This document shows, in pieces, positions 2,538-64,000 of a DNA stretch of 64,000 bases (position 1 is the first letter of the stretch; every line of letters begins with the position of its first letter). Both the position numbers and the translations under genes were made by a program. The stretch comes from a virus (Duplodnaviria; Heunggongvirae; Uroviricota; Caudoviricetes): the IMG/VR virus record IMGVR_UViG_3300021142_000006; one strand, given 5' to 3'. The notes below the pieces were generated by a model. The model saw only the letters and a list, made by a program, of their open reading frames with translations, was not told the origin of the DNA and made no database searches.

Positions 2538-3899
2538 TTAAATTGATAGTTCCAAATTTTGTTGAGGAATTTCTTGAGATTTTTTTAGTTTAGCGGCTTT
2601 AATTCTTCCAGCTTTTGAGTTTGGTTTTTCTTCCAGTCCCAATTTGTGTGCTATATTTGTTGCTGCCACGATATCTGCATCGAGGGTTTTTAGGTAATCG
2701 GTGCAAGCTGTGTTAACGCATTCGAATTTGGTATAGTCTTGTTTTGATCTATTTTCCTCATTGATTGTGTGGCAGGTTGGGCATTCTCTGGAAGTATTTT
2801 TTGGGTTAACCCATTGGATTGTAATTCCAGCCATTTCTGCTTTATATTTGATATATGTTTGCAGTTGGAAGTAAGCCCAAGATTTAAGGAATTGGTTATT
2901 TGTATCTTTGGTGATTCCAGTTAGGTCTTCCATCTTTATGATACCCACGTTATATTGTTGTGCTATTTTGATAATTTCGGCAGATATTCTATGGTTTGTG
3001 GTTTGCGCCCAATTTTTTTCTTTATCTCTGAATTGTTCGAGTGCTTTAAGTTTTTTGGTTCTTCCGTGACCGCCAGTTGTTAGTTTGAGAGCTTTTGCAA
3101 TTGATTGTCTATGTTTTAGCATTCTCATTCTATCGTGTTGTATTTTGGAGTTTATATCGATTTGGTATGGTTGTTTTTCTTCATCTGTGATAAAGAATGA
3201 GACTGGTCTATTGATGCCCATATCGATTCCCATTGTTTTATTTGGGATGATATCTTTTGATTTTGTTTCTGGTATATTGACTGTTAGGTAGAGGAAAAGA
3301 TCTTTTCCGTTATATTGTAATGAGCTATTGCACATTTTATATTCTTGTGTAATGGTTTTTCTTACAATAATTTTGTTATTGGATTTATCTTTTCCGAAGA
3401 AGAGTTCGAATGATATATTATTAAATTTTTGTTTTTGTGTTTGTGTGATTGGGAAATCTATTAGATATTTGTTATTATCTAAATATATTTTATTTGAGAA
3501 TCTGATTGGCAGTTTTTCTGATTTGTAGGAAGGGATTGATACTTTATTATTTAGTATATCGTAGAAGTTTTCGGTTATGGTTTTATATATATCTTGGTTC
3601 AGATTTGATCTGATGTCTGATGCTATATGTGGTAGGGAGGTGGTTATTCTGTAGCCGCTATTTTGGATTGAGGTGGTGAGTTGTGCTGTAAGTTTTTCCA
3701 CGGCAATTTTTTTGGTACATTTTTCTGTATCAAGGATTTCTTTAAGGTTAAAGTTATTATTGACGTGTTGTCTAATAATTTGGTTTCCTACTGTTGCGAG
3801 TTCTTTGGATATATCTTTAATAAAGTTATAGACTTTTGTTCTATCTTTGCTGGTTTCTCCTACTGGGATTAGTTTAATTTTTCTTGTGATGATTGACAT
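2538..3899 (-). CDS. TnpB-family RuvC nuclease, Cas12f-like CRISPR effector candidate (453 aa)
   Basis: RuvC-I motif GIDMG, RuvC-II motif IIKMEDLTG, a C-terminal CxxC...CxxxxC zinc finger and RuvC-III motif DADIVAATNIA. The N-terminus (RKIKLIPVGE) resembles the Cas12f/TnpB WED start. The mini-CRISPR array lies 160 bp from its stop. Confidence 0.75.
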   Translation of the reverse strand: MSIITRKIKLIPVGETSKDRTKVYNFIKDISKELATVGNQIIRQHVNNNFNLKEILDTEKCTKKIAVEKLTAQLTTSIQNSGYRITTSLPHIASDIRSNLNQDIYKTITENFYDILNNKVSIPSYKSEKLPIRFSNKIYLDNNKYLIDFPITQTQKQKFNNISFELFFGKDKSNNKIIVRKTITQEYKMCNSSLQYNGKDLFLYLTVNIPETKSKDIIPNKTMGIDMGINRPVSFFITDEEKQPYQIDINSKIQHDRMRMLKHRQSIAKALKLTTGGHGRTKKLKALEQFRDKEKNWAQTTNHRISAEIIKIAQQYNVGIIKMEDLTGITKDTNNQFLKSWAYFQLQTYIKYKAEMAGITIQWVNPKNTSRECPTCHTINEENRSKQDYTKFECVNTACTDYLKTLDADIVAATNIAHKLGLEEKPNSKAGRIKAAKLKKSQEIPQQNLELSI

Positions 3900-3946
3900 A
3901 TTAGTAAAATTCAGATATTAATTTAAAATTTGTGTGTGTGTGTGTA

Positions 3947-4285
3947 TTAGCGATTAAACCATACTATATGTGTAAAATCTTTTCTGTATGTTCCAGATTT
4001 TATATCGCTTGGGTATATTTCTATATTGGACATTTGAGTATTTGTTGCGTAGTTACCTATTCCGTCATAGTCGATAAATCCGCCACAATTAACGTTTGCT
4101 ATGAAGGTTTCTAATGTCATATGGGTGCCATATTCTGGTAAATTTCCCAATAGCTTTCATTACCGTTGGAATCATATTCAAATTTATGCCAAGACCCAGT
4201 TGAATCTTCATGATAAGTAAGTTTACCGTTGGAATCAAATTCTTGGTATGGAAATTCTGTTATCCCCAGTTGTTGTGCTTTGGTC
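3947..4285 (-). pseudogene. Frameshifted repeat-protein gene (two overlapping frames: 4285..4123 and 4150..3947)
   Basis: Manual translation gives MTKAQQLGITEFPYQEFDSNGKLTYHEDSTGSWHKFEYDSNGNESYWEIYQNMAPI-stop. The listed ORF 3947..4150 continues in another frame across the overlap. The repeated xDSNGxxxY motif suggests they were one gene. Confidence 0.35.
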
Positions 4286-6279: not shown

Positions 6280-6942
6280 TTACATATTAAATAATGTTTC
6301 AATATATTGTATTGTTGGGTAGTAATTACCTTTTCCGTTGTATTTTTCATCAACGGCGGTTTTAAATTGTTGGAGTGTTCCTCTGAAACAGCCAGCTGAT
6401 ATCATTTTATCTGAAAATGTAATGGTTATTGTCCTATTTGTGTTACCCAAAGAGGATATTGTCATATAATCTGATGTTTTCTCAACTTTAGCTTCACCAC
6501 ATATTACAACCATACCAGAAACTAAAGCGTTACCAAATACCTGAGCATTACCTAATACCTGAGCATTACCAGATACCTCAGATTTACCATATACGTGAGC
6601 ATTACCAGATACCCAAGCATTATCAAATACCTGAGCATTACCAGATACGTGAGCATTACCAGATACCCAAGCATTATCAAATACCTGAGCATTACCAGAT
6701 ACGTGAGCATTACCATATACCTGAGCATTACCTAATACCCAAGCATTACCAGATACATAAGCATTACCATATACGTGAGCATTACCAGATACCCAAGCAT
6801 CATCCAATAAGTTACTCACTTTCTCAATAAAACCACCTTTTGTTCCAGCTTTTCCCCATATGCAATCTTCTGTTAATTCAATACGGTAAAGTGTTTTGAA
6901 ATTGAATTGTATTTTTTCATCCGTTAATTTATATGGTGTCAT
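6280..6942 (-). CDS. hexapeptide-repeat (beta-helix type) protein
   Basis: About 17 tandem GNA[HQW]V[SYF] hexapeptide repeats. The underlying DNA has near-perfect 18-bp and 57-bp tandem repeats at about 6530-6800. Confidence 0.6.
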   Translation of the reverse strand: MTPYKLTDEKIQFNFKTLYRIELTEDCIWGKAGTKGGFIEKVSNLLDDAWVSGNAHVYGNAYVSGNAWVLGNAQVYGNAHVSGNAQVFDNAWVSGNAHVSGNAQVFDNAWVSGNAHVYGKSEVSGNAQVLGNAQVFGNALVSGMVVICGEAKVEKTSDYMTISSLGNTNRTITITFSDKMISAGCFRGTLQQFKTAVDEKYNGKGNYYPTIQYIETLFNM

Positions 6943-27173: not shown

Positions 27174-27239
27174 GTTACAAAAGTAATAAATTATAACAAG
27201 ATGCCAAAATTTAATTGAACTATTTTGATATATTTTTTA

Positions 27240-29194: not shown

Positions 29195-29287
29195 ATTTAC
29201 AAATATAAGAAATGTTTTTCAAATAACCAAAAAAAATAAGCACTAAGAATAGTGCTGACATTTCTTTTAATAAAGACTAATTTTTTA

Positions 29288-33664: not shown

Positions 33665-33722
33665 TAGATTTAAATTTAGAATACAAATATAGAAACTCTT
33701 TTTTTAAAAACCAAATTTATTT

Positions 33723-38414: not shown

Positions 38415-38907
38415 GTTCTAATTTTGTTGCTAATGCAAAGTTACTTAATTCTTTGATACCAGTAACCTCCATTATGATTAAATCTTTGATTTCTTGTGGA
38501 AAAATAATTTCCTGATTGATATCCTCAAGCTCGACTTCAAGTATTGTTAAGTTTGTACCATCAATTTCATCGAACTCAAAATGAAAACCATTTGCAAAAT
38601 GAACATATCTTTGTTTATAAAGGCCTTTAAAAACTTTATTGCTTAATTCTTCGAATTTTAATTGATCGATATCCTCATGCATTTCAACGTATTCACCAAT
38701 TCCTTTCTGTATTTTATGCAGATATTCATATGATTCATGGACATTATTTGGCCAATCCGTTAGATCAATTTTTTGTCGAACTCTCTTAACTAAATCACCA
38801 TCATGTAAATAATATTGACTAATACCATAAATTTTATCCCATTGTACTGGAAATGATGGTAATTTCTTCATAAGAAATCTACGCTCTATCTCTTTAACCT
38901 CTTTCAT
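38401..38907 (-). CDS. CYTH-domain (triphosphate tunnel metalloenzyme) protein
   Basis: N-terminal EIERRFLMKKLP matches the CYTH ExExK start, with multiple downstream acidic/basic strand motifs. Confidence 0.45.
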   Translation of the reverse strand: MKEVKEIERRFLMKKLPSFPVQWDKIYGISQYYLHDGDLVKRVRQKIDLTDWPNNVHESYEYLHKIQKGIGEYVEMHEDIDQLKFEELSNKVFKGLYKQRYVHFANGFHFEFDEIDGTNLTILEVELEDINQEIIFPQEIKDLIIMEVTGIKELSNFALATKLEHVNQ

Positions 38908-39916
38908 ATGTGTTTCTGAATATTTGAATTAATTGTGGACTTATACTGAAACGCTTTTCGTTAATTTCCAAACTTTTATTAAAATCACCATCTTTTGTTC
39001 TTTCAATAGCCGCTTTCCAATCACAATACATTTCAACAATATCTTGCAATGTCATATCACTTACTGGGCTATTTAATTCTCGATATTCATCAATATTCCA
39101 TGATTTAAATGTTAGATCTAAATGTGTGTTTGTTGGATCGTCAGATGTTATACATCTCCAAATACCAGCCGAAGAAGCATTTAAATACCCACGAGAAATT
39201 AATTCCTTCTCCATTTTCTCAGTACCAAATGTAATAAAATCTAATTCATTACATTGAACAACATATTTTACATTTGGCGTGGCTAAACCAGTATCATAGG
39301 CATGTTGTAAATTTTCTGATGGTGTTAACCATTCCAGGTTTTCAATGTAATTTTCAAGCTTTCTGCCATTTTTATGATTAACTTGATATCTATCATTTGG
39401 TGGTGATGGTAGAAAAGCATTAGCAACCAATGAATGTATGAAAAAGTTTTTACCAATATTATTAGTTTGTAATCTAATTCTCGCATAACCTTTTGGTGTT
39501 ACATGTGCTTTCATTATCATTTCCTTACCAATAAAATCACCTTGTGATTCTCTATGGATTATTGTTGATAATCGCTTAACCCTACCACGTGATGATATTT
39601 GATATATACCAACATAACCAGAAATATCCATCCACAATTCATTAAACTCCACAAATTGTGGGTGATGAGAGTTATTAGCATAGTGGTGGTCTAATGCCAC
39701 TTCTAATTCTTTAAGACTGGCTTTATATTCATCTGAACCATATGTCATATTTGACAGTCTTGGAGTTAACTCATCGAATAATTCCTTTTCTGGTGAATGT
39801 AACTTAGATTCATCATGAATATTAGCCCTTACTAATAATTCTTTTGAAAAATTGTTTAAATTTTGTGATACTTTGCGAATATGTTCGAGTGTATCAGCTT
39901 TGCTATCGTATGCCAT
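38894..39916 (-). CDS. HNH homing endonuclease (NUMOD4 + HNH_3 modules) with flanking domains
   Basis: WMDISGYVGIYQISSRGRVKRL matches NUMOD4. QVNHKNGRKLENYIENLEWLTPSEN matches HNH_3. Confidence 0.7.
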   Translation of the reverse strand: MAYDSKADTLEHIRKVSQNLNNFSKELLVRANIHDESKLHSPEKELFDELTPRLSNMTYGSDEYKASLKELEVALDHHYANNSHHPQFVEFNELWMDISGYVGIYQISSRGRVKRLSTIIHRESQGDFIGKEMIMKAHVTPKGYARIRLQTNNIGKNFFIHSLVANAFLPSPPNDRYQVNHKNGRKLENYIENLEWLTPSENLQHAYDTGLATPNVKYVVQCNELDFITFGTEKMEKELISRGYLNASSAGIWRCITSDDPTNTHLDLTFKSWNIDEYRELNSPVSDMTLQDIVEMYCDWKAAIERTKDGDFNKSLEINEKRFSISPQLIQIFRNTYERG

Positions 39917-41852: not shown

Positions 41853-42576
41853 TTTTATTTATAATCTTTTTCTACATAAGTTACTTTACCATTACTATAG
41901 GTTCGTTTATATCTAACCCAATAACCAATAGTATCACCCCAGCTATCTGAAATTTTACCTTGCTCAACAGGCTCATCAACATAAATTTGTTTTGATTCAA
42001 ACCTGCTTGTGATGCAACATCACGAATATATTCCGTTGTTGTAAAATCCTCAATACTATCTTTAATACAAGCAAAATGCAATGTTTGACCGTGGAAATAT
42101 TGATGACAACCCTGGAAATAGTTCAATAACTTCTCATGCATGGAGTTGAATTGGTCATTATCAGGAAAAACATCGTTTAACCAATACCATTGGACAACAG
42201 CGGCTTCATATAAAGACGTTGGGGTGTCGGCATTGAACTCAAGCATCTTTGGTATTCCATCCTTGCCCATTGCAAAGTCAAAACGGCCATAAAAACTTGG
42301 TTCTTCATTGTCCCATGATCGTATAATCATTGGCACCAATTCTGGATTGATGAATAATTTATCAAATAAATTATTATCAATAACGTGTTGAACGGCCTGT
42401 AAACATAGATCAAAAACAACATTTGAAGCATTCTCAATGGTGTTTATTTCATCCATTGTGAATTTATAATAAGCATCTTCATTCCAATACTTGTTGTCAA
42501 GGGAATGAAATTCAAATGACAGACTTTCCAGTTTATTAATATAATCTGGTCTTGCAGATATTTTTATGCGTTGCAT
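41853..42576 (-). CDS. glutathionylspermidine-synthase-like (YgiC/YjfC family) ATP-grasp enzyme, apparent frameshift near 42003
   Basis: N-terminus MQRIKISARPDYINKL..FEFH, then RFDFAMG and LEFNADTPTS hallmark motifs. The listed ORF ends at 41881 with a non-homologous tail. Shifting frame at the CAAAACAAA tract gives ESKQIYVDEPVEQGKISDSWGDTIGYWVRYKRTYSNGKVTYVEKDYK to a stop at about 41853. Confidence 0.6.
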
Positions 42577-42578
42577 AG

Positions 42579-42959
42579 TTATGATTTTATACGTATATAA
42601 ATTTTATTTGGGTGTTTACCGACCCAAACAAATGAATTGACAGGACAAAGAGCGACATGTTTGCCTTTTTTATCGTTAGGAAATTTGCATAGGTAATAAC
42701 CCCAATCCATTTCCTCATCGTATTTTGACAATACACAATCAGACGGAATTTCTTCAGTGGAAAGTAATAATGTAATTTCATCAGTACTATTGGATAATCG
42801 ATCAAGCATTTCTGGGGCACCATCGACCATAAGACAGTCGTTAAAATCGCCACCTTGCTCAATATACTCTGGTAGTATAGCAAACCAGAGATCTTGCATC
42901 TTTTTAAATTCTATTAATCGCATCATAAATTGTCTGTTTATAAGACAAAGATAAAACAA
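42579..42959 (-). CDS. hypothetical protein
   Basis: 126-aa ORF immediately upstream of the GspS-like gene. Confidence 0.45.
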   Translation of the reverse strand: MFYLCLINRQFMMRLIEFKKMQDLWFAILPEYIEQGGDFNDCLMVDGAPEMLDRLSNSTDEITLLLSTEEIPSDCVLSKYDEEMDWGYYLCKFPNDKKGKHVALCPVNSFVWVGKHPNKIYIRIKS

Positions 42960-42969
42960 TTAATTCGAA

Positions 42970-43455
42970 CTAACAAATAATTTTTTGAATATTTTTTTCG
43001 TGACCAGTTGTTATGGATTCAATTGATTCGAGTGGATCACCATCGTAATCCATAGCGCAAATATATTGCTCACCCTTATATTCCTTCGTCTTCAAGGTAA
43101 TCAAATCAATGTCAAATCTTTCGCTGTTGTCCAAAAATAATTCGAAAGAATGGAATAAACCTTTAAGATATGTTTCTTTTACATAATGAGAACCTGATTT
43201 TAGGTTCATATTTTCAACCTCTTCGGATAATAAATCATTATACCCATAAACATCAACAATCTCACCTTCATCATCTATAACCTCAATTGTTGCAGTTTCA
43301 ACAAGTGTCCCATATAACTCAAAGATAGGATTATTGTCATCTATTAATTCTGGGTTAGCTTGTATCTTATCCCAATTTTTAACCTGATCCTTTGTTAATT
43401 TGCCAGCTGTAAGGTCAACACCAGCTCCTTTTATATTGATAAGAAAAATTCTCAT
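42970..43455 (-). CDS. hypothetical protein
   Basis: 161-aa ORF. Confidence 0.5.
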   Translation of the reverse strand: MRIFLINIKGAGVDLTAGKLTKDQVKNWDKIQANPELIDDNNPIFELYGTLVETATIEVIDDEGEIVDVYGYNDLLSEEVENMNLKSGSHYVKETYLKGLFHSFELFLDNSERFDIDLITLKTKEYKGEQYICAMDYDGDPLESIESITTGHEKNIQKIIC

Positions 43456-43511: not shown

Positions 43512-43931
43512 TTAATAATTTCTTTCAAGATCACGTTTTATATCTCTCTCTTTAATCGCCTCTTTCTTATTATAATTCTTCTTACCCTTACACATCGCAA
43601 TAACCATCTTAAATAGGCCATTATCGTTCCTAAATACCTTTAATGGTATAATTGTAAGATTGGCATCTAATTCACGCTTAAACTTCCTTAATTCACTTTT
43701 ATTCAACAATAACTTCTTATCTCTCTTTGGATCATGAGAATAAGCCGTTTTTACTTCATTGATATTAAAGTTTTTAACATATAACTCATTACCATCGAAA
43801 TAGCAATAGCCATCGACCAAAGATGCTTTGCCATCTTTTAATTGTTTGATTTCAGAACTTTGCAATACGATACCTGCTGTTTCTGTAAACAGAAATTCGT
43901 AATCAAATTTAGCTTTTCTATTTTCTATCAT
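43512..43931 (-). CDS. smpB: SsrA-binding protein SmpB
   Basis: Near-colinear match to bacterial SmpB: NRKAKFDYEFLFTETAGIVLQSSEIKQLKDGKASLVDGY, DPKRDKKLLLNKSELRKF and CKGKKNYNKKEAIKERD. Confidence 0.85.
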   Translation of the reverse strand: MIENRKAKFDYEFLFTETAGIVLQSSEIKQLKDGKASLVDGYCYFDGNELYVKNFNINEVKTAYSHDPKRDKKLLLNKSELRKFKRELDANLTIIPLKVFRNDNGLFKMVIAMCKGKKNYNKKEAIKERDIKRDLERNY

Positions 43932-44430
43932 GGTCTAAATTAAATAATGTGTTAATTAATTGGTCGATGTTATCAAACATTTCTATATTGTACTTTGAAC
44001 AAAAGATGTCAACGTTACCTTTGCGCCAATAACCTTCTGGACAACAAACAAACATTTTACCAGGTTGAGCAAATTTTCCAAGTTCAAGTAAAGATATGGG
44101 TGACATTGTTTCAGGAATGAAATTCATGATTATATAATCAGAATGTTCCAAAGCATTTAATTCCCATTCCACTTGTTGAAAGAATTGTGCGTTGGTTATA
44201 TTTTGTTCCCAAGAGGAATCCCAATCACTCCTTCTTGGGTTAAATACGTTAAAAGAACTTTGTAATTTTCCACTAACATATTTTTGCCAGTCTTCGGCTG
44301 TCCCTTGTTCTATGCTCCCACCAAGAAATACAGATTTAATATTATGGTATCTATCTGCAATATTCATTGGGGGTGTAAATATTCTATTTTTCATAAAAAA
44401 AAATGTCCCACCTTTAAGTAGGTAGGACAA
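43918..44430 (-). CDS. nucleoside 2-deoxyribosyltransferase-like / DNPH1-like protein
   Basis: SVFLGGSIEQG block and overall Rossmann-like pattern. The assignment is weak. Confidence 0.35.
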   Translation of the reverse strand: MSYLLKGGTFFFMKNRIFTPPMNIADRYHNIKSVFLGGSIEQGTAEDWQKYVSGKLQSSFNVFNPRRSDWDSSWEQNITNAQFFQQVEWELNALEHSDYIIMNFIPETMSPISLLELGKFAQPGKMFVCCPEGYWRKGNVDIFCSKYNIEMFDNIDQLINTLFNLDHDRK

Positions 44431-44459
44431 AATTAATAAACATTTTTGATTATTCCAAA

Positions 44460-48591: not shown

Positions 48592-48969
48592 TTATATATG
48601 TAAATATTGTGCTGTTAAAAATAACTGTAAATAATGTAGACATTGATCTATACCAATGACTACGAATGCCCAATGATAATTTTTTGATGCGAATAATGGA
48701 CTGGTTATTCTACTGGTAACGAAATCCGTTAAACCATGTGCAAAAAAGGTAATTGTAAATACAAATAAAACCGTTGGTGCAAATGATAATTTAAATACAT
48801 ACCACCAGAAACCTGCTGTAATAAGAGCATAGGTTAACACATGAAATGTTAATGCATCAAACCTTTTGCTCTTATTTTCAGCTTGCCATGAAGTCTGACA
48901 AAAAAAGTCAGCAAACCAATGTATAAAAATTATCAATAATATATTAATAATTATCTGGTTGGTTAACAT
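48592..48969 (-). CDS. membrane protein (4 TM)
   Basis: 125-aa hydrophobic ORF. Confidence 0.45.
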   Translation of the reverse strand: MLTNQIIINILLIIFIHWFADFFCQTSWQAENKSKRFDALTFHVLTYALITAGFWWYVFKLSFAPTVLFVFTITFFAHGLTDFVTSRITSPLFASKNYHWAFVVIGIDQCLHYLQLFLTAQYLHI

Positions 48970-50549
48970 ATTTCTTCAAGTTTTTTACGAATCTCGGTTA
49001 AAGTCGTTTGGTTATAGAATTTACCATCTTCGTAAATGGTTTGTAGAATTCCAGCGGCTTCCATTTCTGGAGTACATTGTGTATTTACAATATATTCACC
49101 ATCATAATCTTTAGTAACACAAACCCTACCTTTAAGTGATTTTTTGGTGCTCTTACCAGAAGCATCCCTATCAGTTACTGGTTCTTTGTAGATGTCATAT
49201 GATTGACGAATTTGGAATACGCTTTCGTCAGGATGTGAAGTTGCATCTTGCAATACTTCAAACCAAGCGCCTTTAGCGGCAAAACCTAAAGTATCACGAG
49301 TATTATATTGGTATGTGAATGAACCAACACCAAGTACAATATTAGTAGAAGCAAAACCTTTAGCGGCTAACCTTTCATAGATTTTAATCTGACGATCCAA
49401 TGTGATTGAATCACCGTAAATGGCACCAATGTGTGGGTCAAGAACTTTGTAACCTTGTTCGTTAACTGTACCACCGAAGATTTCCCAAAGTAATTCGATT
49501 ACACCTTTTTCTTCACTTGTCCAAATTTCATTTTTGTTTTCCGATAAATCTCGGTCACTTTGTAAAAATGAACCACAGATAATATCTACTGGATCACCTG
49601 AGTCAGGACGAATAACCAACTTACCATCACGAGCCATAATAGCTTCTTTGTTTGCTGGTAAGTATTCGGTAATCAACTCCCACAAATCAAATGTATCTGA
49701 CACAATGGAAAGAATACCTTTAGGGAATATCTGCAACCAATCGGCAATCATTTGTTGTTCACCAACTGTAAAAATCTTAGTACAACTAACTGAATGTTCG
49801 CTTGCGTTTACTGAATTGATAAAAACTTCATTTTCAGGTTCATCATAAAAATAACGAGCGCCTGGGATGCAAATAATTGTATCAGAACCTCTAAATGAAG
49901 TAGCATGTCCTAAACCACTTGATAACATATCCCAAGGAGATAAACCACGAGCAGAGAAATCATGAGCAAGGAAAGGAATTAACCATGCGTTAGCTGGATC
50001 TGTTTTCATAACCCAATTAACTAAATTCCTGCGATATTGTAAGGCAATAGTTGCTGATGTTGATGGTTTCCAAGCCAATGATGAAATGATTGTTTCCAAA
50101 TATAAAGTTAACCATGCAAAACCATCAATTGTATTGATGAATGTCATGTGTGGTATATTAGGTAATGTTTCAATACCTTCTGGTAATGATTTGATTCGAA
50201 TTGGTAAATAACCAACATCATGAAGAGCTTCGAAGTGTGAAGCATCATAATCCATTCCAAGATACATTGACATGTCTTTACCAAATTTAATAGCGATATC
50301 TTTTGGTTGGCTAAAGAAATGTTCTGTGAACTCGTCATGTAGCCAACGAACAAGTAATTGTTGACCAAATGATACAATTTTTTTGATACCACCTGGAGCA
50401 TATTTAACGCTACGTGGAATCCATGTGCCGTACAATCTTGTTGTACCTGGGGCTAACATTGCTTTGTGCGCTGTTTTATAGCCATCTACATAATATAAAC
50501 TACAAGGTTTAAACATATTTATTTTTTGTTTTAGAATGTAAAGATACAA
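48963..50549 (-). CDS. nadV: nicotinamide phosphoribosyltransferase (NAMPT/NadV)
   Basis: 528 aa. N-terminal YKTAHK..L region plus conserved GSDT and IRPDSGDP blocks typical of NAMPT. Confidence 0.85.
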   Translation of the reverse strand: MYLYILKQKINMFKPCSLYYVDGYKTAHKAMLAPGTTRLYGTWIPRSVKYAPGGIKKIVSFGQQLLVRWLHDEFTEHFFSQPKDIAIKFGKDMSMYLGMDYDASHFEALHDVGYLPIRIKSLPEGIETLPNIPHMTFINTIDGFAWLTLYLETIISSLAWKPSTSATIALQYRRNLVNWVMKTDPANAWLIPFLAHDFSARGLSPWDMLSSGLGHATSFRGSDTIICIPGARYFYDEPENEVFINSVNASEHSVSCTKIFTVGEQQMIADWLQIFPKGILSIVSDTFDLWELITEYLPANKEAIMARDGKLVIRPDSGDPVDIICGSFLQSDRDLSENKNEIWTSEEKGVIELLWEIFGGTVNEQGYKVLDPHIGAIYGDSITLDRQIKIYERLAAKGFASTNIVLGVGSFTYQYNTRDTLGFAAKGAWFEVLQDATSHPDESVFQIRQSYDIYKEPVTDRDASGKSTKKSLKGRVCVTKDYDGEYIVNTQCTPEMEAAGILQTIYEDGKFYNQTTLTEIRKKLEEIC

Positions 50550-51041: not shown

Positions 51042-51806
51042 TTAATTTTTATATTTCCAAATAAATTTTCCAGCGGTTTTAACTTTACCCTTCAAACAAG
51101 TTGTAATGTTTGTGGGAAATATATTTAATTCAGTTCCAGCCTCTTTTGCACTTTTCCAATCTCGTATATATTCACCTTCTTTAGTATATTGTTGAATTGG
51201 TATTGATAATTTATCAATCATTGATTCTTTGCTTTGTTCAGTTAAAGTACTTTTTTTACCTTTCATTGGATGTGTGTTTGTTTTAAAAAACTTTTTCATA
51301 CTTTCCGATTTTTTTTGTTTAACTTCATCTGGCATTTTTTTACCATACTGCCAATGTTTCTCACCACCTTGTGCTTCGGATTTTAATTTTCTTCGCCATT
51401 CTGGGTGTTTTTCACCAAGATGTGCCAATCGACATTTTTCCTTTGTTTCATCACTACGTTTAACGCCTAACGAACTGCCAGCAACTTTACAAACATTATA
51501 TTCGCTGTTTGAGTTATCGATCCACCATTGTTCACGAATCAATAAATCCTCTTTTTTATCGACCTTTTCAAGTATGATAAATTCAAAATTATCCTCACCA
51601 TATTTAGTCCAGGCTCTTTGCAGATAGTCGGAATGGTGTATTTCTTTTTTTAATTGTCGTAAATGTATTGTTTTACGTTTATAAAAGTTTACAGCCGATC
51701 CCACATATTTATGACCGTTGATTTTGTTTACTATTCCATATATTGCTTTCATAACAATAAATATATGGGAAAAGGACAAAATTCTACCCTTGATCGTCAA
51801 AGTCAA
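51042..51806 (-). CDS. GIY-YIG homing endonuclease with C-terminal NUMOD-type DNA-binding module
   Basis: IYGIVNKINGHKYVGSAVNFYKR...H matches the GIY-YIG motif. The C-terminus has a NUMOD1-like helix. Confidence 0.75.
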   Translation of the reverse strand: MTLTIKGRILSFSHIFIVMKAIYGIVNKINGHKYVGSAVNFYKRKTIHLRQLKKEIHHSDYLQRAWTKYGEDNFEFIILEKVDKKEDLLIREQWWIDNSNSEYNVCKVAGSSLGVKRSDETKEKCRLAHLGEKHPEWRRKLKSEAQGGEKHWQYGKKMPDEVKQKKSESMKKFFKTNTHPMKGKKSTLTEQSKESMIDKLSIPIQQYTKEGEYIRDWKSAKEAGTELNIFPTNITTCLKGKVKTAGKFIWKYKN

Positions 51807-52053: not shown

Positions 52054-52380
52054 TTATCGTATTAGAATTACATTACCTTTTAACATATATAAACTATCAT
52101 TAGATGTATATCGGATTTGATAGTAATATGAACCCATATCTTGAAGAATACCATTATAGGAGCCATCCCAACCAGAATTATCTGTTGATCGATATATCAA
52201 TCTACCAGAACGGTTAAACACGCAGAAATCTAATATTTTCTCTGATGTTAAATTCACGATTTTGAATCTATCATTCACATTATCATTATTTGGTGTAAAT
52301 GCATTTGGAACGGCAAGTTTTGATTGTGAATAACATAATATTGTTATAAACAACAAGGGAATAAATAAAAGTGTTTTCAT
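52054..52380 (-). CDS. secreted protein consisting of a T9SS/gliding-motility C-terminal sorting domain
   Basis: Signal peptide, then VPNAFTPNNDNVNDRF...NRSGRLIY...GWDGSYNG...GSYYYQI matches the type-B T9SS CTD consensus. Confidence 0.55.
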   Translation of the reverse strand: MKTLLFIPLLFITILCYSQSKLAVPNAFTPNNDNVNDRFKIVNLTSEKILDFCVFNRSGRLIYRSTDNSGWDGSYNGILQDMGSYYYQIRYTSNDSLYMLKGNVILIR

Positions 52381-53371: not shown

Positions 53372-54337
53372 TTAAAAAACATTTAATTGTTGAATGAAAT
53401 CTTCTTTAATGGTAATATCTGAAAAATTGATATCAGCTTTATCTTTAACACTATTCGTGCAATAGATTTTTGTAAAGTATTTACTTAGTTCAGATAAACC
53501 AGCACTAAATATACCATGTGTTACCACCAAGTAAATATTGCCGTAATCTTTTGGTTGTACCGAACTTGATAAATTTCTACGTTCTTGGATTGTTTTTGCA
53601 ATTTCAATAAACGTTCTACCACCATCACAAATATCATCAAAAATAAAGAAATCTTTGTCAGCATCTGTTACTGACATGTGAACATTTGTGTAATCAATCT
53701 TACCAGTATCAAGATTACGATGTTTTGAAGCAATGATTACCTCATTTTTGTATTTCAAAGCTTCTGCCACATGAAATACTTTTTTCAAAGCACCAGCATC
53801 AGGAGATATAAAACGAACATTGTCATAATTTAGAGCTATTTTATCCCCATCGGTAAATTTTCCATCCTGGATTTGCGTTCTGAGATAATCAGATAAAGCA
53901 AAACGTGCCAACTCAGTGTTATCAATTTTTTTGAAGTTATTTATACATGCCTCAAGCACATCTGAATGAGGATCAACCACAGTAACGGACTCGTAATTTT
54001 GAGAATTGATAATAGGAGCAATAACGTGTTTAACGTAATTAATACCACCTTCCATGAACTTTCTGTCACTTCTGGCACCCATACAATATGGAATGTATAA
54101 TTCAATTGATTTTACACCTATACCACGAAGAGCTTGTGTGGCACAAATAATAAGTTCCAGATCCTGAAAATTATTCAATCTGGATTTAATTTTGATAGGT
54201 ATTGTTTGATTTGTAATACCGTAGAATGTATGTATATTTTCTTCTATCAGTCTTAATGACTGCTGACCGTCTGGGAAACGGCTAATTTCATATTTTATAC
54301 TATTTGTAGGGTTAACCAGATTTAATACATCTGTCAT
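53372..54337 (-). CDS. ribose-phosphate pyrophosphokinase-like (PRPP synthetase family)
   Basis: VVDPHSD, ISPDAGA and IFDDICDGGRT blocks correspond to the Prs flexible loop, PP loop and ribose-5-P loop. Confidence 0.75.
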   Translation of the reverse strand: MTDVLNLVNPTNSIKYEISRFPDGQQSLRLIEENIHTFYGITNQTIPIKIKSRLNNFQDLELIICATQALRGIGVKSIELYIPYCMGARSDRKFMEGGINYVKHVIAPIINSQNYESVTVVDPHSDVLEACINNFKKIDNTELARFALSDYLRTQIQDGKFTDGDKIALNYDNVRFISPDAGALKKVFHVAEALKYKNEVIIASKHRNLDTGKIDYTNVHMSVTDADKDFFIFDDICDGGRTFIEIAKTIQERRNLSSSVQPKDYGNIYLVVTHGIFSAGLSELSKYFTKIYCTNSVKDKADINFSDITIKEDFIQQLNVF

Positions 54338-54390
54338 CGCTTATAATTTTTTACAAAAATAAGCATTAAATAATTAACAACCAAATTTTT

Positions 54391-55062: not shown

Positions 55063-56403
55063 TTAATTTATGACTTCAGATTGTGCTTCCTCTTCGTCAA
55101 TAAACCCAGAATCCTTAATAATTCCTTCTAACACTTTGAAGTTGAAGTTCTTATGTTTGAAGATCCTAACAGCAAGGCCTGATTCAAGTCTGATACATGA
55201 ACCTTCTGACCAGTGTGTTGAGTCAGTTGGGTCGACACCATCTGAAACTTGGTTAACATATTCAATGAATTTGTCATTAAAATCACGGTCATCAGTGATG
55301 TTATGTCTTAATTTAAATTCATTTACCGTAAAACGGTCAAGTTCTGGTGAGTGTTTAACACCGATTTCAGAACAACGTCTTTTAACGTCATCCCATGAGT
55401 AGTCAACCATTTTACCATCTTCATTTGTCATTGTCATACGGTAAACAAATACGTCTGATTGACCGTCAGCACAACCATACTTGAAAATCATGTGTTTATT
55501 ATCACCAGCATTTGAATACAACTTGGTGAAGTTTTTGTCACCAATTTTTGTTGTATCCACCATACCCATAATTGGTCTGCCAAGTGACTCATATCCAACA
55601 ATTTCAAAATATACCGTTTCACCTTTTCTCAGGTTGTCTTTAAATAGGTTGAATGCTTTATCACGAATTGTTGGATCATGGAATTGTGTTCCTGAGCTTT
55701 CCTCAATAACAACCCTTCTTGTTCCATTTAGAAATGACCAATCCTTTTCTTTGATTTTGGCACCAAAAAACTTTGCAATCTTTTCGATTGTTGTTAACTT
55801 TCTGTCAATCAACACGTGACCAACCCTTCCAGATGTTCCATGTTGCTTAGATGTGATGATAATTAAATCGTTTGGTTCGATTTTATCAATGTTAACAATC
55901 ATATGTTTGGTATCGATATGTTCAAAGAACATTTCAGATGTTTTTGCTTTGCGAACTTTCTTTGGTTGATTCTCCTTAGCCGCTTTAACAGTTGCTGGAT
56001 TAACATATTTATTACAGATAGGTACACCTTTCCAAGTGTCGAATTCGTAACCTTCCACATCAAGACCAGTTATTTCAATGAATGCAAAATAGTGTAATGG
56101 AACCCAAAACCCATCTGAAATTTCACCACGAAACTTTTGAGCCCTAACCCTACGGTTATCATCAAACATACCTGGCTTAGCTTCAGTATTTTTGTTCTTA
56201 GTATTATCCCTATAAAGATTATTGGCTTTACAGAATTCGTCAGATAATTGTCCGTCACACGGAAAATACACACCCCATTCAGATTCCTTAGAATCCAATC
56301 CAATAACCACTTGGTTACCATGGCAAGTTGCCAACTGCACTTTATCCGCATTTGAATGTGGCCTTACATCTTTTAATCTTGTTACAATTGCTGTGTATGA
56401 CAT
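55063..56403 (-). CDS. ATP-dependent RNA ligase (Rnl2-like nucleotidyltransferase with N-terminal OB-like domain)
   Basis: Motif I KQHGTSG (KxHG[TS]), with downstream motif III/IV-like blocks (ETVYFEIVGYE, DVFVYRM). Confidence 0.55.
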   Translation of the reverse strand: MSYTAIVTRLKDVRPHSNADKVQLATCHGNQVVIGLDSKESEWGVYFPCDGQLSDEFCKANNLYRDNTKNKNTEAKPGMFDDNRRVRAQKFRGEISDGFWVPLHYFAFIEITGLDVEGYEFDTWKGVPICNKYVNPATVKAAKENQPKKVRKAKTSEMFFEHIDTKHMIVNIDKIEPNDLIIITSKQHGTSGRVGHVLIDRKLTTIEKIAKFFGAKIKEKDWSFLNGTRRVVIEESSGTQFHDPTIRDKAFNLFKDNLRKGETVYFEIVGYESLGRPIMGMVDTTKIGDKNFTKLYSNAGDNKHMIFKYGCADGQSDVFVYRMTMTNEDGKMVDYSWDDVKRRCSEIGVKHSPELDRFTVNEFKLRHNITDDRDFNDKFIEYVNQVSDGVDPTDSTHWSEGSCIRLESGLAVRIFKHKNFNFKVLEGIIKDSGFIDEEEAQSEVIN

Positions 56404-59567: not shown

Positions 59568-60455
59568 TTAACATATATTATTTCTTTTAATTAATTGATA
59601 ATAGGATGATTTACTTATATTCAATTTTTTATAAATTTCTTTATGTGATAAACCCTCATTTAACATTCTAAAAATAGCAATTTTATTCTGATCAGCTTTT
59701 TCATTTCTACCAACAAAGGATAAATCAATTTCAGACCATTTTCTTTCCAAGAAAGGTAAATTATAACCAATAGCCTTTTCTTTAATTTTTTTACAAAATA
59801 CACTATTACTAATTTCTAAAGTAGCATATCCCAATTTATTAATTCTTGTATGTCCACCTAAATCCAAAACATTATTAAAATAATCTAAAACAGGCAACCA
59901 ATTTTTATGCGTTTTAATTCTTATATGAAAATCGCATCTATTATGTAATTTACGAATATTTCCATCACCATCAGTAAACCCAATAAATATACTAAATAAT
60001 TTATCAAAATCCAAGTTTTTGAAAACATTTATATTTGGTGGATTTATAGTTTTATTTGATTTAATATCAAAACGATCAACAAAAATATTTATAATATCTT
60101 TATGCATTAAGGAAAGTATGCAAGCCGAATATTTTTTATTATTAATTTTATCTTGTGTTTTAACATATAAATGTTCAGATAATTTATTTAAATGTTCTTT
60201 ATCTTTACCTGATAAGGTAATGGATAACCGTCCATCTTCGATGTGACCATCAGCTAATATAAAACCAACCCAATAATAAGTATCTAAATTATCAGTTAAC
60301 AAATAATTCGCATCACCAATTCTTTTAACATATTTTTTTGTTGAGCAGCTCCTACATTCTGTTCCTTCTTTCTCAGAACATTTAAAACTTTCAATTGATT
60401 TATATTTTAAAACTTTATCACAAGTTTTACATATTCTATTTAATGATTTTTCCAT
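59568..60455 (-). CDS. LAGLIDADG-type homing endonuclease with N-terminal Cys cluster and C-terminal HTH
   Basis: Two dodecapeptide-like motifs (VGFILADGHI and IGFTDGDGNI) and a C-terminal sigma-region-4-like HTH. Confidence 0.55.
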   Translation of the reverse strand: MEKSLNRICKTCDKVLKYKSIESFKCSEKEGTECRSCSTKKYVKRIGDANYLLTDNLDTYYWVGFILADGHIEDGRLSITLSGKDKEHLNKLSEHLYVKTQDKINNKKYSACILSLMHKDIINIFVDRFDIKSNKTINPPNINVFKNLDFDKLFSIFIGFTDGDGNIRKLHNRCDFHIRIKTHKNWLPVLDYFNNVLDLGGHTRINKLGYATLEISNSVFCKKIKEKAIGYNLPFLERKWSEIDLSFVGRNEKADQNKIAIFRMLNEGLSHKEIYKKLNISKSSYYQLIKRNNIC

Positions 60456-60560: not shown

Positions 60561-61166
60561 TTATTTTTTTTTCAATTTATATGTTGTTATTTGCTCAAGT
60601 TCGCTTGTTCTAAAAATCATTATCTCTTCTTTGTTAGTGAATTTAGAACCGTCTGGATTTCTGAAATATTTAAATTTGCGGTTATCATCAGATCTTTTAT
60701 TTACGCCATGTAACACATTTCCGAATATACATATATCTCCAGTAAAGAAAGGTCTTGCGTAATCCCTTAAAACTTCTGTTTTGATGAAAAGCCAATTTTC
60801 TTCAGTTTCAAATATTATATAATCTACAGAACTATGTATATAACCTGGTTTACCTACTGGGTTTGTCCATTCAATATATTGATATTTATCTGTTTTACCA
60901 TCAATATATTCATGTGTTCCTTTATCGTAGAAATTAAATGACTTTATGGATTTAATATCAAAATAATATTTAATTTTATCTTTGATAATTAATTCATTTG
61001 GAAAATCATCGTAAGGGGTTACTTCAATATCCCAGTGTTCATGTCTATCTTGAGTTGGCGTTGATATTTTATAATCACCGTATTGTTCGAAATCATTAAC
61101 AAATTTTTCTTCAGTTTTTCTACCAGCTAAAACAAACTCACTTTGTGTATTACCCATATTTTTCAT
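60561..61166 (-). CDS. hypothetical protein
   Basis: 201-aa ORF. Confidence 0.5.
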   Translation of the reverse strand: MKNMGNTQSEFVLAGRKTEEKFVNDFEQYGDYKISTPTQDRHEHWDIEVTPYDDFPNELIIKDKIKYYFDIKSIKSFNFYDKGTHEYIDGKTDKYQYIEWTNPVGKPGYIHSSVDYIIFETEENWLFIKTEVLRDYARPFFTGDICIFGNVLHGVNKRSDDNRKFKYFRNPDGSKFTNKEEIMIFRTSELEQITTYKLKKK

Positions 61167-61704
61167 AAATCTTTTTAGTTATCTCAGCATCATAAAGTGA
61201 ATTATGTTGATTCAATGGTTTCTCCATATCCAACAAAACATGCCTTTTTTCCTTGGGATTAATCCCCTTAGTTTTTAATAATGTAAATATATCAAAAGGT
61301 TGCGCTGTTGTAAAGTTTTTTGGCGGTTTTCTCATGGTATTTCCTTCCATAATAAGATCAACCATGAGAAACCAATCCCAAAAAACACAATCACCCCAAA
61401 ACTCAATTTGCTTAAATTGATTTAACCAATCTTTTAACGCTTGTTTAATAGTTTGAAAATCATTTTTTATGTATAATGTATCATTTTCCTCATCATTGTG
61501 AAGATAATGAAAATAATCATTATATAGTAAATTGTCTATAACATTTTTATTGATCCATTCATCACATTGTGATTTATCATAATCATTAAATTCTGCATAG
61601 AATTTTTTATTAGTATCAGTTACAATACCAATTGATACTGGGGTGGTGTTCTTATGTAATCCAGTAAATTCAAGATCAAAAAAGATCTTTGTAATATTTT
61701 TCAT
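61150..61704 (-). CDS. DEDD-family 3'-5' exonuclease
   Basis: Exo I motif FFDLEFTG, with downstream Exo II/III-like acidic and YDA motifs. Confidence 0.5.
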   Translation of the reverse strand: MKNITKIFFDLEFTGLHKNTTPVSIGIVTDTNKKFYAEFNDYDKSQCDEWINKNVIDNLLYNDYFHYLHNDEENDTLYIKNDFQTIKQALKDWLNQFKQIEFWGDCVFWDWFLMVDLIMEGNTMRKPPKNFTTAQPFDIFTLLKTKGINPKEKRHVLLDMEKPLNQHNSLYDAEITKKIYEKYG

Positions 61705-62549: not shown

Positions 62550-63218
62550 TTATAATTTTATAATTTGATCAAATTCTTTATTTGTTGGTTCAACGTATGA
62601 TTTTATCATTTTGTACATGACAGAATCGGATATCACTTTACCTTCTTCTTTTTCACGTTTTGCAAGCTGAGCCTTTAATTTTTCAGCGTTTGAAAAATCA
62701 AAAACAACGGCAATCTTGATATAATCATCAGGAAAAAGACGAAGTAATTTGTTTCTACCTTTTAATGTCATGTTTGTTCTATCAATGACAATATCAAGTC
62801 TTTCGTTTATGGCTCGCATAATTCCGAATCTGAAAATCTTTTCAATATCCTTAAAATCCTTAAAGTCAAAATGATCAAATGCTTGATTATAATTAAGACC
62901 TATTTCTTTTCCTTTCTTTGTTAATATATCATCTGTGGAAGCGACATGGTAATCCCCATTTGGTAACAACACGTTTTTTACGTATGTTGACTTACCAATA
63001 CCTGGAGGGCCCACCAAAAAATATACCACAGGTTTTGTTTTCATTTCGATAAAATATAGTTTTCTTTCTAATAATATTGAAAGAACTTTTGTTAATTCAC
63101 TATCACCGTATAGCTTAGAGAAACTGACGACCATGTTACTTGCTGATTTTAGTTGCTCTTTATTTTCGCAGCTAAGGATAACTTGGTTGACCTTCTTATA
63201 AGCTAATACGTTTTTCAT
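62550..63218 (-). CDS. P-loop kinase (polynucleotide-kinase/AAA_33-like)
   Basis: LVGPPGIGKST Walker A motif and VIDRTN Walker B-like motif, about 220 aa. Confidence 0.5.
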   Translation of the reverse strand: MKNVLAYKKVNQVILSCENKEQLKSASNMVVSFSKLYGDSELTKVLSILLERKLYFIEMKTKPVVYFLVGPPGIGKSTYVKNVLLPNGDYHVASTDDILTKKGKEIGLNYNQAFDHFDFKDFKDIEKIFRFGIMRAINERLDIVIDRTNMTLKGRNKLLRLFPDDYIKIAVVFDFSNAEKLKAQLAKREKEEGKVISDSVMYKMIKSYVEPTNKEFDQIIKL

Positions 63219-63703
63219 GCTAATCTGAATTTTGAAATATAATCTCTTATTTTTACATTGTTTTTGCCTCCAATCATTTTTATCCAGTTTTCTTGGGTTC
63301 TTGCGATTTTTGTATCTGGATTTTTAGCCCACTCAATGAAATCAGGATATTTCACTCTATTAAATATACGCTCATCAAGTAAAAAAACAACCGCTGTAAG
63401 CTGATCTCCAAGATCTGGTTCATGAAACACGGCAGTCTTAACTCCAAGCTTGTGCAGGTTCAAGTAATGATTGTTTAACGATCCCACAGGTAAACCAGTT
63501 TCCAAATCAGCCTTAGTATTTGTGGTTCCACCGTTTAGTATGATGAATGTTTTCCAGTTCTTAGCCCAGTCTTTATAGGCTTCATTATTGTGTTTTAAAC
63601 CATATTCAACGACAGCATGGCCAAACTGAATACCTTGCTGAATCGGACTAATATTATACGGTACAAGACCATACATTCTAAGCTCTAACTTCTCTTTTTT
63701 CAT
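63215..63703 (-). CDS. hypothetical protein, possibly PTH2-like peptidyl-tRNA hydrolase
   Basis: QQGIQFGHAVV is reminiscent of the PTH2 GK.AAQ..HA block. The assignment is weak. Confidence 0.25.
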   Translation of the reverse strand: MKKEKLELRMYGLVPYNISPIQQGIQFGHAVVEYGLKHNNEAYKDWAKNWKTFIILNGGTTNTKADLETGLPVGSLNNHYLNLHKLGVKTAVFHEPDLGDQLTAVVFLLDERIFNRVKYPDFIEWAKNPDTKIARTQENWIKMIGGKNNVKIRDYISKFRLA

Positions 63704-63863: not shown

Positions 63864-64000
63864 TAAAATATTTCAATTTGTCTTATAGCTAAATCAATTT
63901 CGGTTAATTCACTTTTTGAATATTTTTTCGTTTCAGGTACATCATCCAACCCAATAACCTCTGGATTACCAAATTTACCATGAGCAGCACCAACCAATTT
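63864..64000 (-). CDS. 5'-partial CDS (C-terminal 45 codons) running off the window edge
   Basis: Minus-strand frame open from 64000 down to a TAA at 63866..63864. Confidence 0.4.

Follow-up and report, generated by a model that had tools for sequence, protein, structure and literature searches.

A complete SmpB gene in a lineage of very large phage-like genomes

Identification of the smpB gene

The stretch of DNA analyzed here (hereafter the window) comprises 64,000 nucleotides of the Caudoviricetes record IMGVR_UViG_3300021142_000006 in IMG/VR. Positions 43512..43931 on its minus strand hold an open reading frame (ORF) of 139 amino acids, with an ATG start and a stop codon at 43512-43514, which encodes SmpB, the protein half of the trans-translation pair formed with transfer-messenger RNA (tmRNA). 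The translated protein matched the profile PF01668 with E = 2.7e-41 and 141.3 bits (cut-off 27) over profile positions 2-140 of 143, and the coverage extended from the N-terminal NRKA motif through the end of the tail. Both equivalog models of NCBI were also exceeded, TIGR00086 with 143.2 bits (cut-off 119.1) and NF003843 with 139.6 bits (cut-off 130). A sequence-only reading of the window had proposed a near-full-length SmpB homologue at this position, and these hidden Markov model (HMM) searches bore it out.

The structural comparison gave the same result. All 15 sequence matches in PDB were SmpB, the best being that of Thermotoga maritima (7ljp, E = 5.5e-33). The AlphaFold model built from 36 homologues, with a mean predicted local distance difference test (pLDDT) score of 83.5, showed a core formed by a beta-barrel, with residues 122-138 forming a helix at the C-terminus. 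A Foldseek search of PDB with this model detected 21 chains at E <= 0.001, all of which were SmpB, with template modelling (TM) scores of 0.68-0.82 and a core root-mean-square deviation of 1.3-1.9 A. The match is far beyond chance. The protein is shorter than the cellular median of 151 residues, mainly due to a shorter N-terminus along with a loop that is 2 residues shorter, and all of the invariant core residues N4, A7, G20, E27, K29, H66, R70 and L74-L75 are retained. The central loop segment H66-D-P-K-R70-D-K-K-L-L-L, a region of SmpB whose importance has been described (PMC4131195), is present and aligned. The sequence signature, the fold and the complete C-terminal tail confirmed that the ORF is a real SmpB, and judging from these features it is apparently a functional copy.

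The C-terminal tail

The residues of the tail were assigned by alignment to Escherichia coli SmpB, with the roles of the residues taken from Miller and Buskirk (PMC4151336), and their conservation was examined in 80 cellular SmpBs and 67 SmpBs from phages or metagenomes. The window protein has 21 residues after GKK, when the cellular proteins have 16-27 (median 23, n = 80). K131-G-K-K134 of the E. coli protein is retained as K115-G-K-K118, and the basic residues K143, R145 and R153 are retained as K127, R129 and R137. H136 of E. coli corresponds to Y120, keeping the aromatic character. The residue at this position stacks on G530 of 16S rRNA and activates EF-Tu in E. coli, where the substitution His136Tyr had a minor effect (PMC4151336), and Tyr was the most common residue here among the cellular SmpBs (64 of 80).

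In E. coli, accommodation and peptidyl transfer depend on the D137-K-R139 motif, and its mutation to alanine abolishes tagging (PMC4151336). The corresponding residues in the window protein are N121-K-K123, in which K138 is kept as K122 and the flanking residues are altered. The changes of D to N and of R to K are conservative at the level of residue type. Such N and K variants were found in 6 and 12, respectively, of the 67 phage or metagenome sequences, and within the 16-member clade to which the window protein belongs (see below) the canonical residues are D in 11/16 and R in 9/16 members. W147 of E. coli is replaced by the hydrophobic I131, at a position occupied mostly by polar residues in SmpBs of Bacteroidota. 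The sequence-only reading had considered that the gene might lack the conserved tail required for function; the tail is present, and the mapped functional residues are either kept or conservatively replaced.

Phage-like nature of the window

The G+C content of the window is approximately 30%, and approximately 87 non-overlapping ORFs were predicted, most without a family match. The genes are small, dense and co-oriented, nearly all of them on the minus strand. The recognizable ones, including genes for an ECF-type sigma factor, a NUDIX protein, a ClpP-like protease, a thioredoxin, a VWA protein and a Cas12f/TnpB-like protein, are typical auxiliary genes of large phages. At least three genes of homing-endonuclease type were detected at 38894-39916 (HNH/NUMOD4 in a DUF5662 gene), 51042-51806 (GIY-YIG) and 59568-60455 (HTH/LAGLIDADG-like), and their presence differs between strains. 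Neither tRNA, rRNA or other Rfam families nor housekeeping genes were detected in the 64-kb window.

In 80 cellular smpB loci, including the matches from GTDB 'MAG' (metagenome-assembled genome) entries, no window gene was found within 3 kb of smpB. The relatives described below share the gene module around smpB with the window, and one of them is an IMG/VR viral genome. The proposal of the sequence-only reading that this SmpB is carried by a phage, and not by a host chromosome, was therefore upheld. Two contigs of 150,494 and 179,649 bp that overlap the window would imply a genome of at least approximately 207 kb, if they are collinear with the window. As virion genes were not found in approximately 84 kb, consisting of the window and its flanks, the phage identity rests on the gene content and the relatives; virion hallmark genes were likewise not detected in the contexts of six further SmpB relatives. 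These results supported the assignment of the window to a jumbo phage, or else to an element that is phage-like and very large, rather than to a chromosome.

Several other candidates for the nature of this DNA were rejected. The suspicion that the GTDB 'MAG' matches of SmpB include mis-binned phage contigs was unsupported for this lineage, given the lack of window genes within 3 kb. Recoding of stop codons as in the Lak phages was discarded, since recoding of TAG or TGA hardly lengthened the ORFs and the standard code fits. For a megaplasmid origin, the best SmpB on a plasmid was 50% identical and was located on records resembling fragments of Bacteroidales chromosomes. Tenacibaculum phage PTm1, considered as a cultured relative, has, over the 91 kb compared, nothing in common with the window except NAMPT and thioredoxin. 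A near-identity DNA search of the phage collection gave no match to the window.

Relatives and origin of smpB

The assembly collection contains an identical SmpB in 66 blocks, with contigs reaching 179,649 bp, and several of these contigs were 100% identical to the window. Homologues with 48-67% identity were located on contigs ranging from 47 kb to 331 kb, namely L016 (331,389 bp), L017, L018 (298,717 bp), L114 (164,252 bp), L115 and L116. Counting the IMG/VR viral genome described below, seven relatives retain smpB in a common module that consists of genes for NAMPT, a deoxyribosyltransferase and often a cytidylyltransferase-like protein, followed by smpB, DHFR, a glutathionylspermidine-synthase-like gene, DUF6717 and a sigma factor. 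L016, L017 and L018 have homologues of 8-11 window proteins within 10 kb of smpB. An IMG/VR viral genome of 298,833 bp possesses exactly the L018-type smpB, and three further SmpB relatives are on IMG/VR contigs, one of which was placed near the 298,833 bp genome in the tree; the search of IMG/VR did not return the window strain itself. The best SmpBs in the phage collection are those of curated huge phages (LR756501, 54%; LR756504, 53%; Lak phages, 46-47%), and the SmpB-like family phrog_6791 of PHROGs was matched with E = 4e-34.

Among the matches H23-H34 in the phage collection, several 'phage' records of Staphylococcus, Mammaliicoccus and Listeria contain a host-like smpB at or near the end of the record, for example at 25-441 and 37-456. 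These genes look like carry-over from a prophage boundary or from assembly rather than true phage genes, and they should not be included among phage SmpBs.

The closest cellular SmpBs in bacterial collections with one genome per species (n = 80) were almost all from Bacteroidota, with 42-55% identity. In a bootstrapped neighbour-joining tree, the window SmpB fell into a clade of 16 sequences with 96% support, all from metagenomes. This clade nests in a weakly supported group of approximately 55 sequences that contains no sequence from a cellular genome and includes the 299 kb lineage, two IMG/VR contigs and the megaphage LR756501. Deeper nodes were not resolved, as expected for a protein of 139 residues. 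Between strain variants that are regionally about 96-97% identical, smpB differs by 2-4 nt, all of them synonymous. These findings indicated that smpB is an old acquisition from a Bacteroidota-type source that has descended vertically under purifying selection. A recent acquisition, which the sequence-only reading had raised for comparison with cellular smpB, is not consistent with the 42-55% identity to the closest cellular proteins; this level of identity points to an old gene of the lineage.

The glutathionylspermidine-synthase-like gene of the window strain (41881-42576, minus strand) encodes 231 amino acids with a nonsense-looking C-terminus, compared with 378 amino acids in strain variants and relatives (L002, L003 and L016). 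The window strain also lacks four genes located downstream, DHFR among them, and together with the truncation this looks like a deletion of approximately 2.4 kb.

Genes and signals around smpB

Immediately upstream of smpB is a nucleoside 2-deoxyribosyltransferase-like gene (43918..44394, minus strand; PF15891, E = 1.3e-33), the stop of which overlaps the smpB start by 14 nt. Because of this overlap, co-transcription of the pair and coupling of its translation are probable. The deoxyribosyltransferase gene probably starts with the ATG at 44394; the TTG at 44430 selected by the ORF finder falls within the hairpin described below. The gene is next to or near smpB in L016, L114, L115, L116 and the phage Lak-A2, and absent from the strain variants L002, L003 and L006. 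Upstream of the pair there is a motif TTTG-N20-TAATTTTG (44428..44459, minus strand) resembling promoters of Bacteroidota, the function of which is predicted from this resemblance. The pattern TTTG-N18-22-TAnnTTTG occurs 24 times in the window when 5.3 occurrences are expected, a 4.5-fold excess, and none of 100 shuffled sequences reached 24. The copies are mostly on the coding strand and immediately upstream of ORFs, as seen at 54354-54385, 44428-44459, 42946-42977, 33684-33715, 29200-29231 and 27178-27208. This distribution suggests that much of the region may be transcribed by the host RNA polymerase. A terminator-like G+C hairpin with a T-run after it (44404..44429, minus strand), consisting of a 10-bp stem with 5 G-C pairs and a T9 tail and identified by a consensus match only, is located between an Endonuclease_NS gene and the smpB unit and overlaps the predicted transcription start region. 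The host of the element is probably a member of Bacteroidota, in view of the promoter motif, an ORF with a CHU_C domain (type IX secretion sorting) at 52054-52380 and the affinity of the SmpB.

A number of genes for processing RNA ends were detected in the same region. A phage-type ATP-dependent RNA ligase (55063..56403, minus strand; PHA02142 / RNA_ligase) has homologues in 379 phage records, and those in L017 and L018, conserved near smpB, are 56-66% identical. A P-loop kinase of the AAA_33 family with a weak polynucleotide-kinase-like match (62550..63218, minus strand) and a 3'-exoribonuclease-like gene (61150-61704) are also present. Just past window position 64000, there are two nucleotidyltransferases of PolyA_pol / CCA-adding type (3104-4132 and 5098-5868 of L010), with matches to the CCA tRNA nucleotidyltransferase model of E = 1.8e-35 and 5.7e-07, under the curated cut-offs, and an RlaP nucleotidyltransferase is situated just beyond the right window edge. 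This cluster may constitute a toolkit for the repair of tRNA or tmRNA. The relative L116 carries Thg1 and a 2'-5' RNA-ligase-like gene.

Two further genes may be related to nicotinamide adenine dinucleotide (NAD+). A NAMPT/Namat-like phosphoribosyltransferase is encoded at 48963..50549 (minus strand; NF006629, 410.8 bits, cut-off 405), and a Prs/Adps-like protein at 53372..54337 (minus strand; TIGR01251, E = 5e-26, below cut-off). The Prs-like gene is found in >1,000 phage records, and the NAMPT/Prs pair is conserved near smpB in the relatives. NARP1 is a phage pathway of NAD+ reconstitution composed of Namat and Adps, which counters NAD-depleting defences, and the NAMPT/Prs pair may be an NAD+ reconstitution pair of the NARP1 type. 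The neighbourhood, with its RNA ligase, kinase, CCA-adding-type enzymes, ClpP-like protease and NAMPT/Prs pair, would fit a toolkit for translation under attack. The defence-system models of PADLOC gave no match on smpB and its neighbours.

An ORF of 162 amino acids at 63215-63703 (minus strand) matched the 'hydrolase' family phrog_3668 with E = 1.4e-17. By eye, it may resemble peptidyl-tRNA hydrolases of the PTH2 type, an identity that would suit ribosome rescue; no match was found to this ORF in Pfam, NCBIfam or PDB sequences, and the model from the single sequence had a pLDDT of 40.

Other features of the window

A compact type V CRISPR-Cas-like unit was found near the beginning of the window, comprising an array (2146-2355) and a gene for 453 amino acids (2538-3899, minus strand). 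The protein matched the PADLOC models of Cas12u3 with E = 1.9e-90 over nearly the full length and Cas12f with 5.4e-88, as well as Cas12f1-like_TNB of Pfam. The array contains three full 37-nt repeats (GTTGTATATACCTTT..AATTGTG.TCTTTTACACCA) with 28-nt spacers, together with a fourth, partial repeat that is able to pair with the downstream sequence AAAGGTAT. The same array was found in three strain variants. Neither cas1 nor cas2 was seen with the Cas12f/TnpB-like unit, and the three spacers had no exact match in IMG/VR.

A repeat protein encoded at 6280-6942 (minus strand) is predicted to be a beta-solenoid of the GNAxVxGNA type (phrog_7964, E = 2e-61), and its length varies between 202 and 220 amino acids among strains by gain or loss of 54-nt units. 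The segment 30000-34000 has a G+C content of 0.34-0.37, compared to approximately 0.30 elsewhere. It encodes an SPFH/Band_7-like lipoprotein (phrog_200, E = 3e-38). Two further products were recognized by eye, namely a coiled-coil protein similar to PspA and a lipoprotein rich in Gly, Ser and Tyr. The segment may be a membrane-stress module acquired separately.

Possible role of the phage SmpB

With the identity, fold, tail, conservation and selection of the protein observed as above, we infer its expression, its tmRNA partner and its benefit for the phage as follows. The phage SmpB is probably active, pairing with a host and/or phage tmRNA and recycling ribosomes stalled on truncated mRNAs, and would thereby sustain phage protein synthesis. 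During infection, the host RNA polymerase would transcribe smpB and the upstream deoxyribosyltransferase gene from the Bacteroidota-type promoter. The SmpB produced would bind the tRNA-like domain of a tmRNA. This could be the tmRNA of the host, expected to outlast the host SmpB after shutdown of host expression, or one that the phage itself encodes in another part of its genome, as Lak-A2 does. The complex of SmpB and tmRNA, together with EF-Tu, would enter ribosomes that have stalled on reaching the 3' end of a broken mRNA, where Y120 would stack on G530 of 16S rRNA and the basic tail helix would fill the empty mRNA channel. The ribosomes thus freed would resume the translation of phage mRNAs. 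A benefit would be expected when truncated mRNAs are abundant, either through phage-driven decay of host mRNAs or through RNA-cleaving defences of the host.

Several points weigh against this reading. The D-K-R motif is invariant in 80/80 of the cellular SmpBs, and the window protein has N-K-K. No tmRNA was detected in the window with ARAGORN, at the gathering scores of Rfam or at an Rfam threshold of E <= 1; the four weak Rfam matches in the window were to eukaryotic or unrelated families and well under the cut-offs. Likewise, no tmRNA was found in the 10 kb past either window edge or in 193 kb of the smpB neighbourhoods of the relatives. The phage tmRNA suggested by the sequence-only reading was thus not seen by ARAGORN in the approximately 84 kb visible as window and flanks. 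Capsid, portal, terminase and tail genes were not detected in the window or the 10-kb flanks with Pfam and PHROGs; this is weak as an objection, covering approximately 84 kb of a genome that is probably >200 kb. The link of smpB to the genes for RNA repair and NAD+ is also weak, being one of proximity within a large region of auxiliary genes. In the literature, no paper was found with an experimental characterisation of a phage SmpB in terms of expression, binding or activity.

The complete genome of Lak-A2 (541 kb, MK250019.1), assembled from 11 pieces, was used as a control for the tmRNA search. It contains 31 tRNAs and one tmRNA at complement 142605-142997 (43603-43997 of locus L104). This tmRNA is full-length, scoring 58.2 bits with RF00023 (gathering score 47), and the tag predicted by ARAGORN is DDEIDFRMAA; the original paper on the Lak phages does not mention a tmRNA in its main text (PMC6784885). 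The smpB of Lak-A2 is located at 423468-423887, approximately 280 kb from the tmRNA. Because ssrA is far from smpB in this phage, the absence of tmRNA from the region examined here is uninformative for the rest of the genome, probably more than 120 kb, and a phage tmRNA elsewhere in the genome of the window element is possible by this analogy. In the cellular genomes examined, no tmRNA adjoining smpB was found.

The presence of both smpB and a tmRNA with its own tag in Lak-A2, and of both SmpB and tmRNA in huge phages (PMC7162821), raises the question of a private system. In such a system, the phage SmpB would act mainly with a distant phage tmRNA whose tag differs from that of the host, so that ribosomes would be rescued without routing the products to host proteolysis; in a variant of this explanation, the pair would substitute for the host tmRNA and SmpB when a host defence targets or senses them. 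SmpB-like domains proposed to engage tmRNA exist in some predicted defence systems, and tmRNA has been reported as a major substrate of the RNA-repair ligase RtcB (PMC11090510). The nearby RNA ligase and NAD+-salvage genes are typical of counter-defence, and residues specific to the lineage, Ile at the W147 position and N-K-K, occur in the SmpBs of the phage clade. We nevertheless regard this explanation as rather unlikely, as the approximately 84 kb of the window element and 193 kb of its relatives gave no phage tmRNA and nothing in the analysis showed a host defence that targets tmRNA-SmpB. Slightly more doubtful still is the extended form, in which the tail changes (N-K-K and Ile) would tune the protein for rescue when the host tmRNA-SmpB is disabled, cleaved or sensed by RNA-targeting defences, and the protein would work with the RNA ligase, the CCA-adding-type enzymes and the NAD+-salvage pair as a counter-defence that maintains translation against abortive infection. 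The opposite effect is conceivable for a protein in which the cell-invariant D-K-R is changed to N-K-K. It could bind the host tmRNA or ribosome and accommodate poorly, titrating tmRNA and dampening host trans-translation, for example to prevent tagging and degradation of phage proteins. Tail mutants of E. coli SmpB indeed bind tmRNA and ribosomes yet are inactive (PMC4151336), and a mycobacteriophage tmRNA consisting of the tRNA-like domain only has been discussed as a possible titrator of SmpB (PMC4131195). However, the rest of the tail (the aromatic residue, K122 and the basic helix) is conserved across the phage clade, which a pure decoy would not need, and with the canonical D and R kept in 11/16 and 9/16 of the clade members the lineage as a whole looks functional. 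A decoy or inhibitor is therefore improbable.

The remaining explanations concern the DNA rather than the protein. The lack of capsid, portal, terminase and tail genes would also be expected if the window belonged to a bacterial chromosome, genomic island or megaplasmid that carries the smpB of the cell or plasmid itself, and translation genes of a similar kind have been noted on some large putative plasmids (Al-Shayeb et al., PMC7162821). Set against this are the 64 kb without tRNA, rRNA or housekeeping genes, the approximately 87 mostly orphan ORFs nearly all on one strand, the several homing endonucleases and matches to phage protein families, and the neighbours shared by 0/80 cellular smpB loci, with a best plasmid match of only 50% identity. 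Moreover, a syntenic relative is the IMG/VR viral genome of 298,833 bp, three more relatives are on IMG/VR contigs, and the closest catalogued homologues are from curated megaphages. A non-phage origin is thus very improbable. We gave the least credence to a passenger without a role, which would be either a drifting gene derived from a host or a boundary artefact as at the ends of prophage-derived records. The Staphylococcus and Listeria 'phage' records with a host-like smpB near their ends (H23 and H26, at 25-456) provide a precedent, but smpB is internal here and its position is conserved across seven diverged relatives, the variation between strains is only synonymous, and all of the core and tail residues are kept.

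Comparison with known SmpBs

The window SmpB resembles the cellular proteins, especially those of Bacteroidota, in its equivalog scores, beta-barrel, C-terminal helix, KGKK, aromatic residue, basic tail and central loop. It differs from them in being trimmed and 42-55% identical, in carrying N-K-K in place of D-K-R and an Ile at the position of W147, and in its location within a phage-like module of auxiliary genes. Hudson et al. (2014), in a survey of the RefSeq of 2012-13, detected tmRNA genes in some phages, whereas all smpB genes were chromosomal except for two copies on one plasmid (PMC4131195). Al-Shayeb et al. (2020) then described tmRNAs as well as SmpB from huge phages, and in the GenBank files of their supplement SmpB is listed at least eight times, with best hits to Bacteroidetes for six of these genes (PMC7162821). 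The smpB of the window is therefore a further example of a phenomenon already published in 2020, and the gene looks orthodox.

With the SmpBs of huge phages (PMC7162821), including the Lak phages and phrog_6791, the window gene has in common its presence on what is probably a very large phage genome and a probable host of Bacteroidota type. A deoxyribosyltransferase-like gene adjoins smpB in Lak-A2, too. In contrast, homologues in Lak-A2 were found for only 11/87 window proteins, and the local gene order is not shared with the megaphages. The smpB genes of the latter are located amid dense arrays of tRNAs (27 and 19 tRNAs within 20 kb), whereas no tRNA was found in the 84 kb of the window and its flanks. 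The Lak phages recode TAG (PMC6784885), and the window uses the standard genetic code. Judged by these genomic features, the window lineage is distinct both from the Lak phages and from the phages of 600-735 kb.

The tmRNAs of the mycobacteriophage Bxz1 group and Bacillus phage G (PMC4131195) are alike in that one half of the trans-translation pair has been acquired. Those phages have the RNA without smpB, while the window has the protein, and no tmRNA was found in its approximately 84 kb. The SPB domains of the CoCoNuT type IV restriction systems (PMC11090510) share the SmpB-type OB fold, the setting of conflict between phage and host, and the predicted engagement of tmRNA. They are fused to helicases in host defence proteins, are approximately 20 residues shorter and lack the helix that contacts tmRNA; the protein encoded in the window stands alone as a full SmpB and possesses the tail for ribosome binding.

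Implications

In the lineage of phage-like genomes of approximately 300 kb described here, smpB has been conserved by vertical descent within a fixed module and under purifying selection, and is not sporadic cargo. Its N-K-K is a natural variant of a motif that is invariant in cells. As smpB is used as a single-copy marker of bacteria, phage copies could in principle inflate the contamination estimates of genome bins, although no case was found for the window lineage. The neighbouring genes for RNA repair and NAD+ salvage suggest that, in these phages, ribosome rescue may be linked with resistance to defences that target RNA or NAD.

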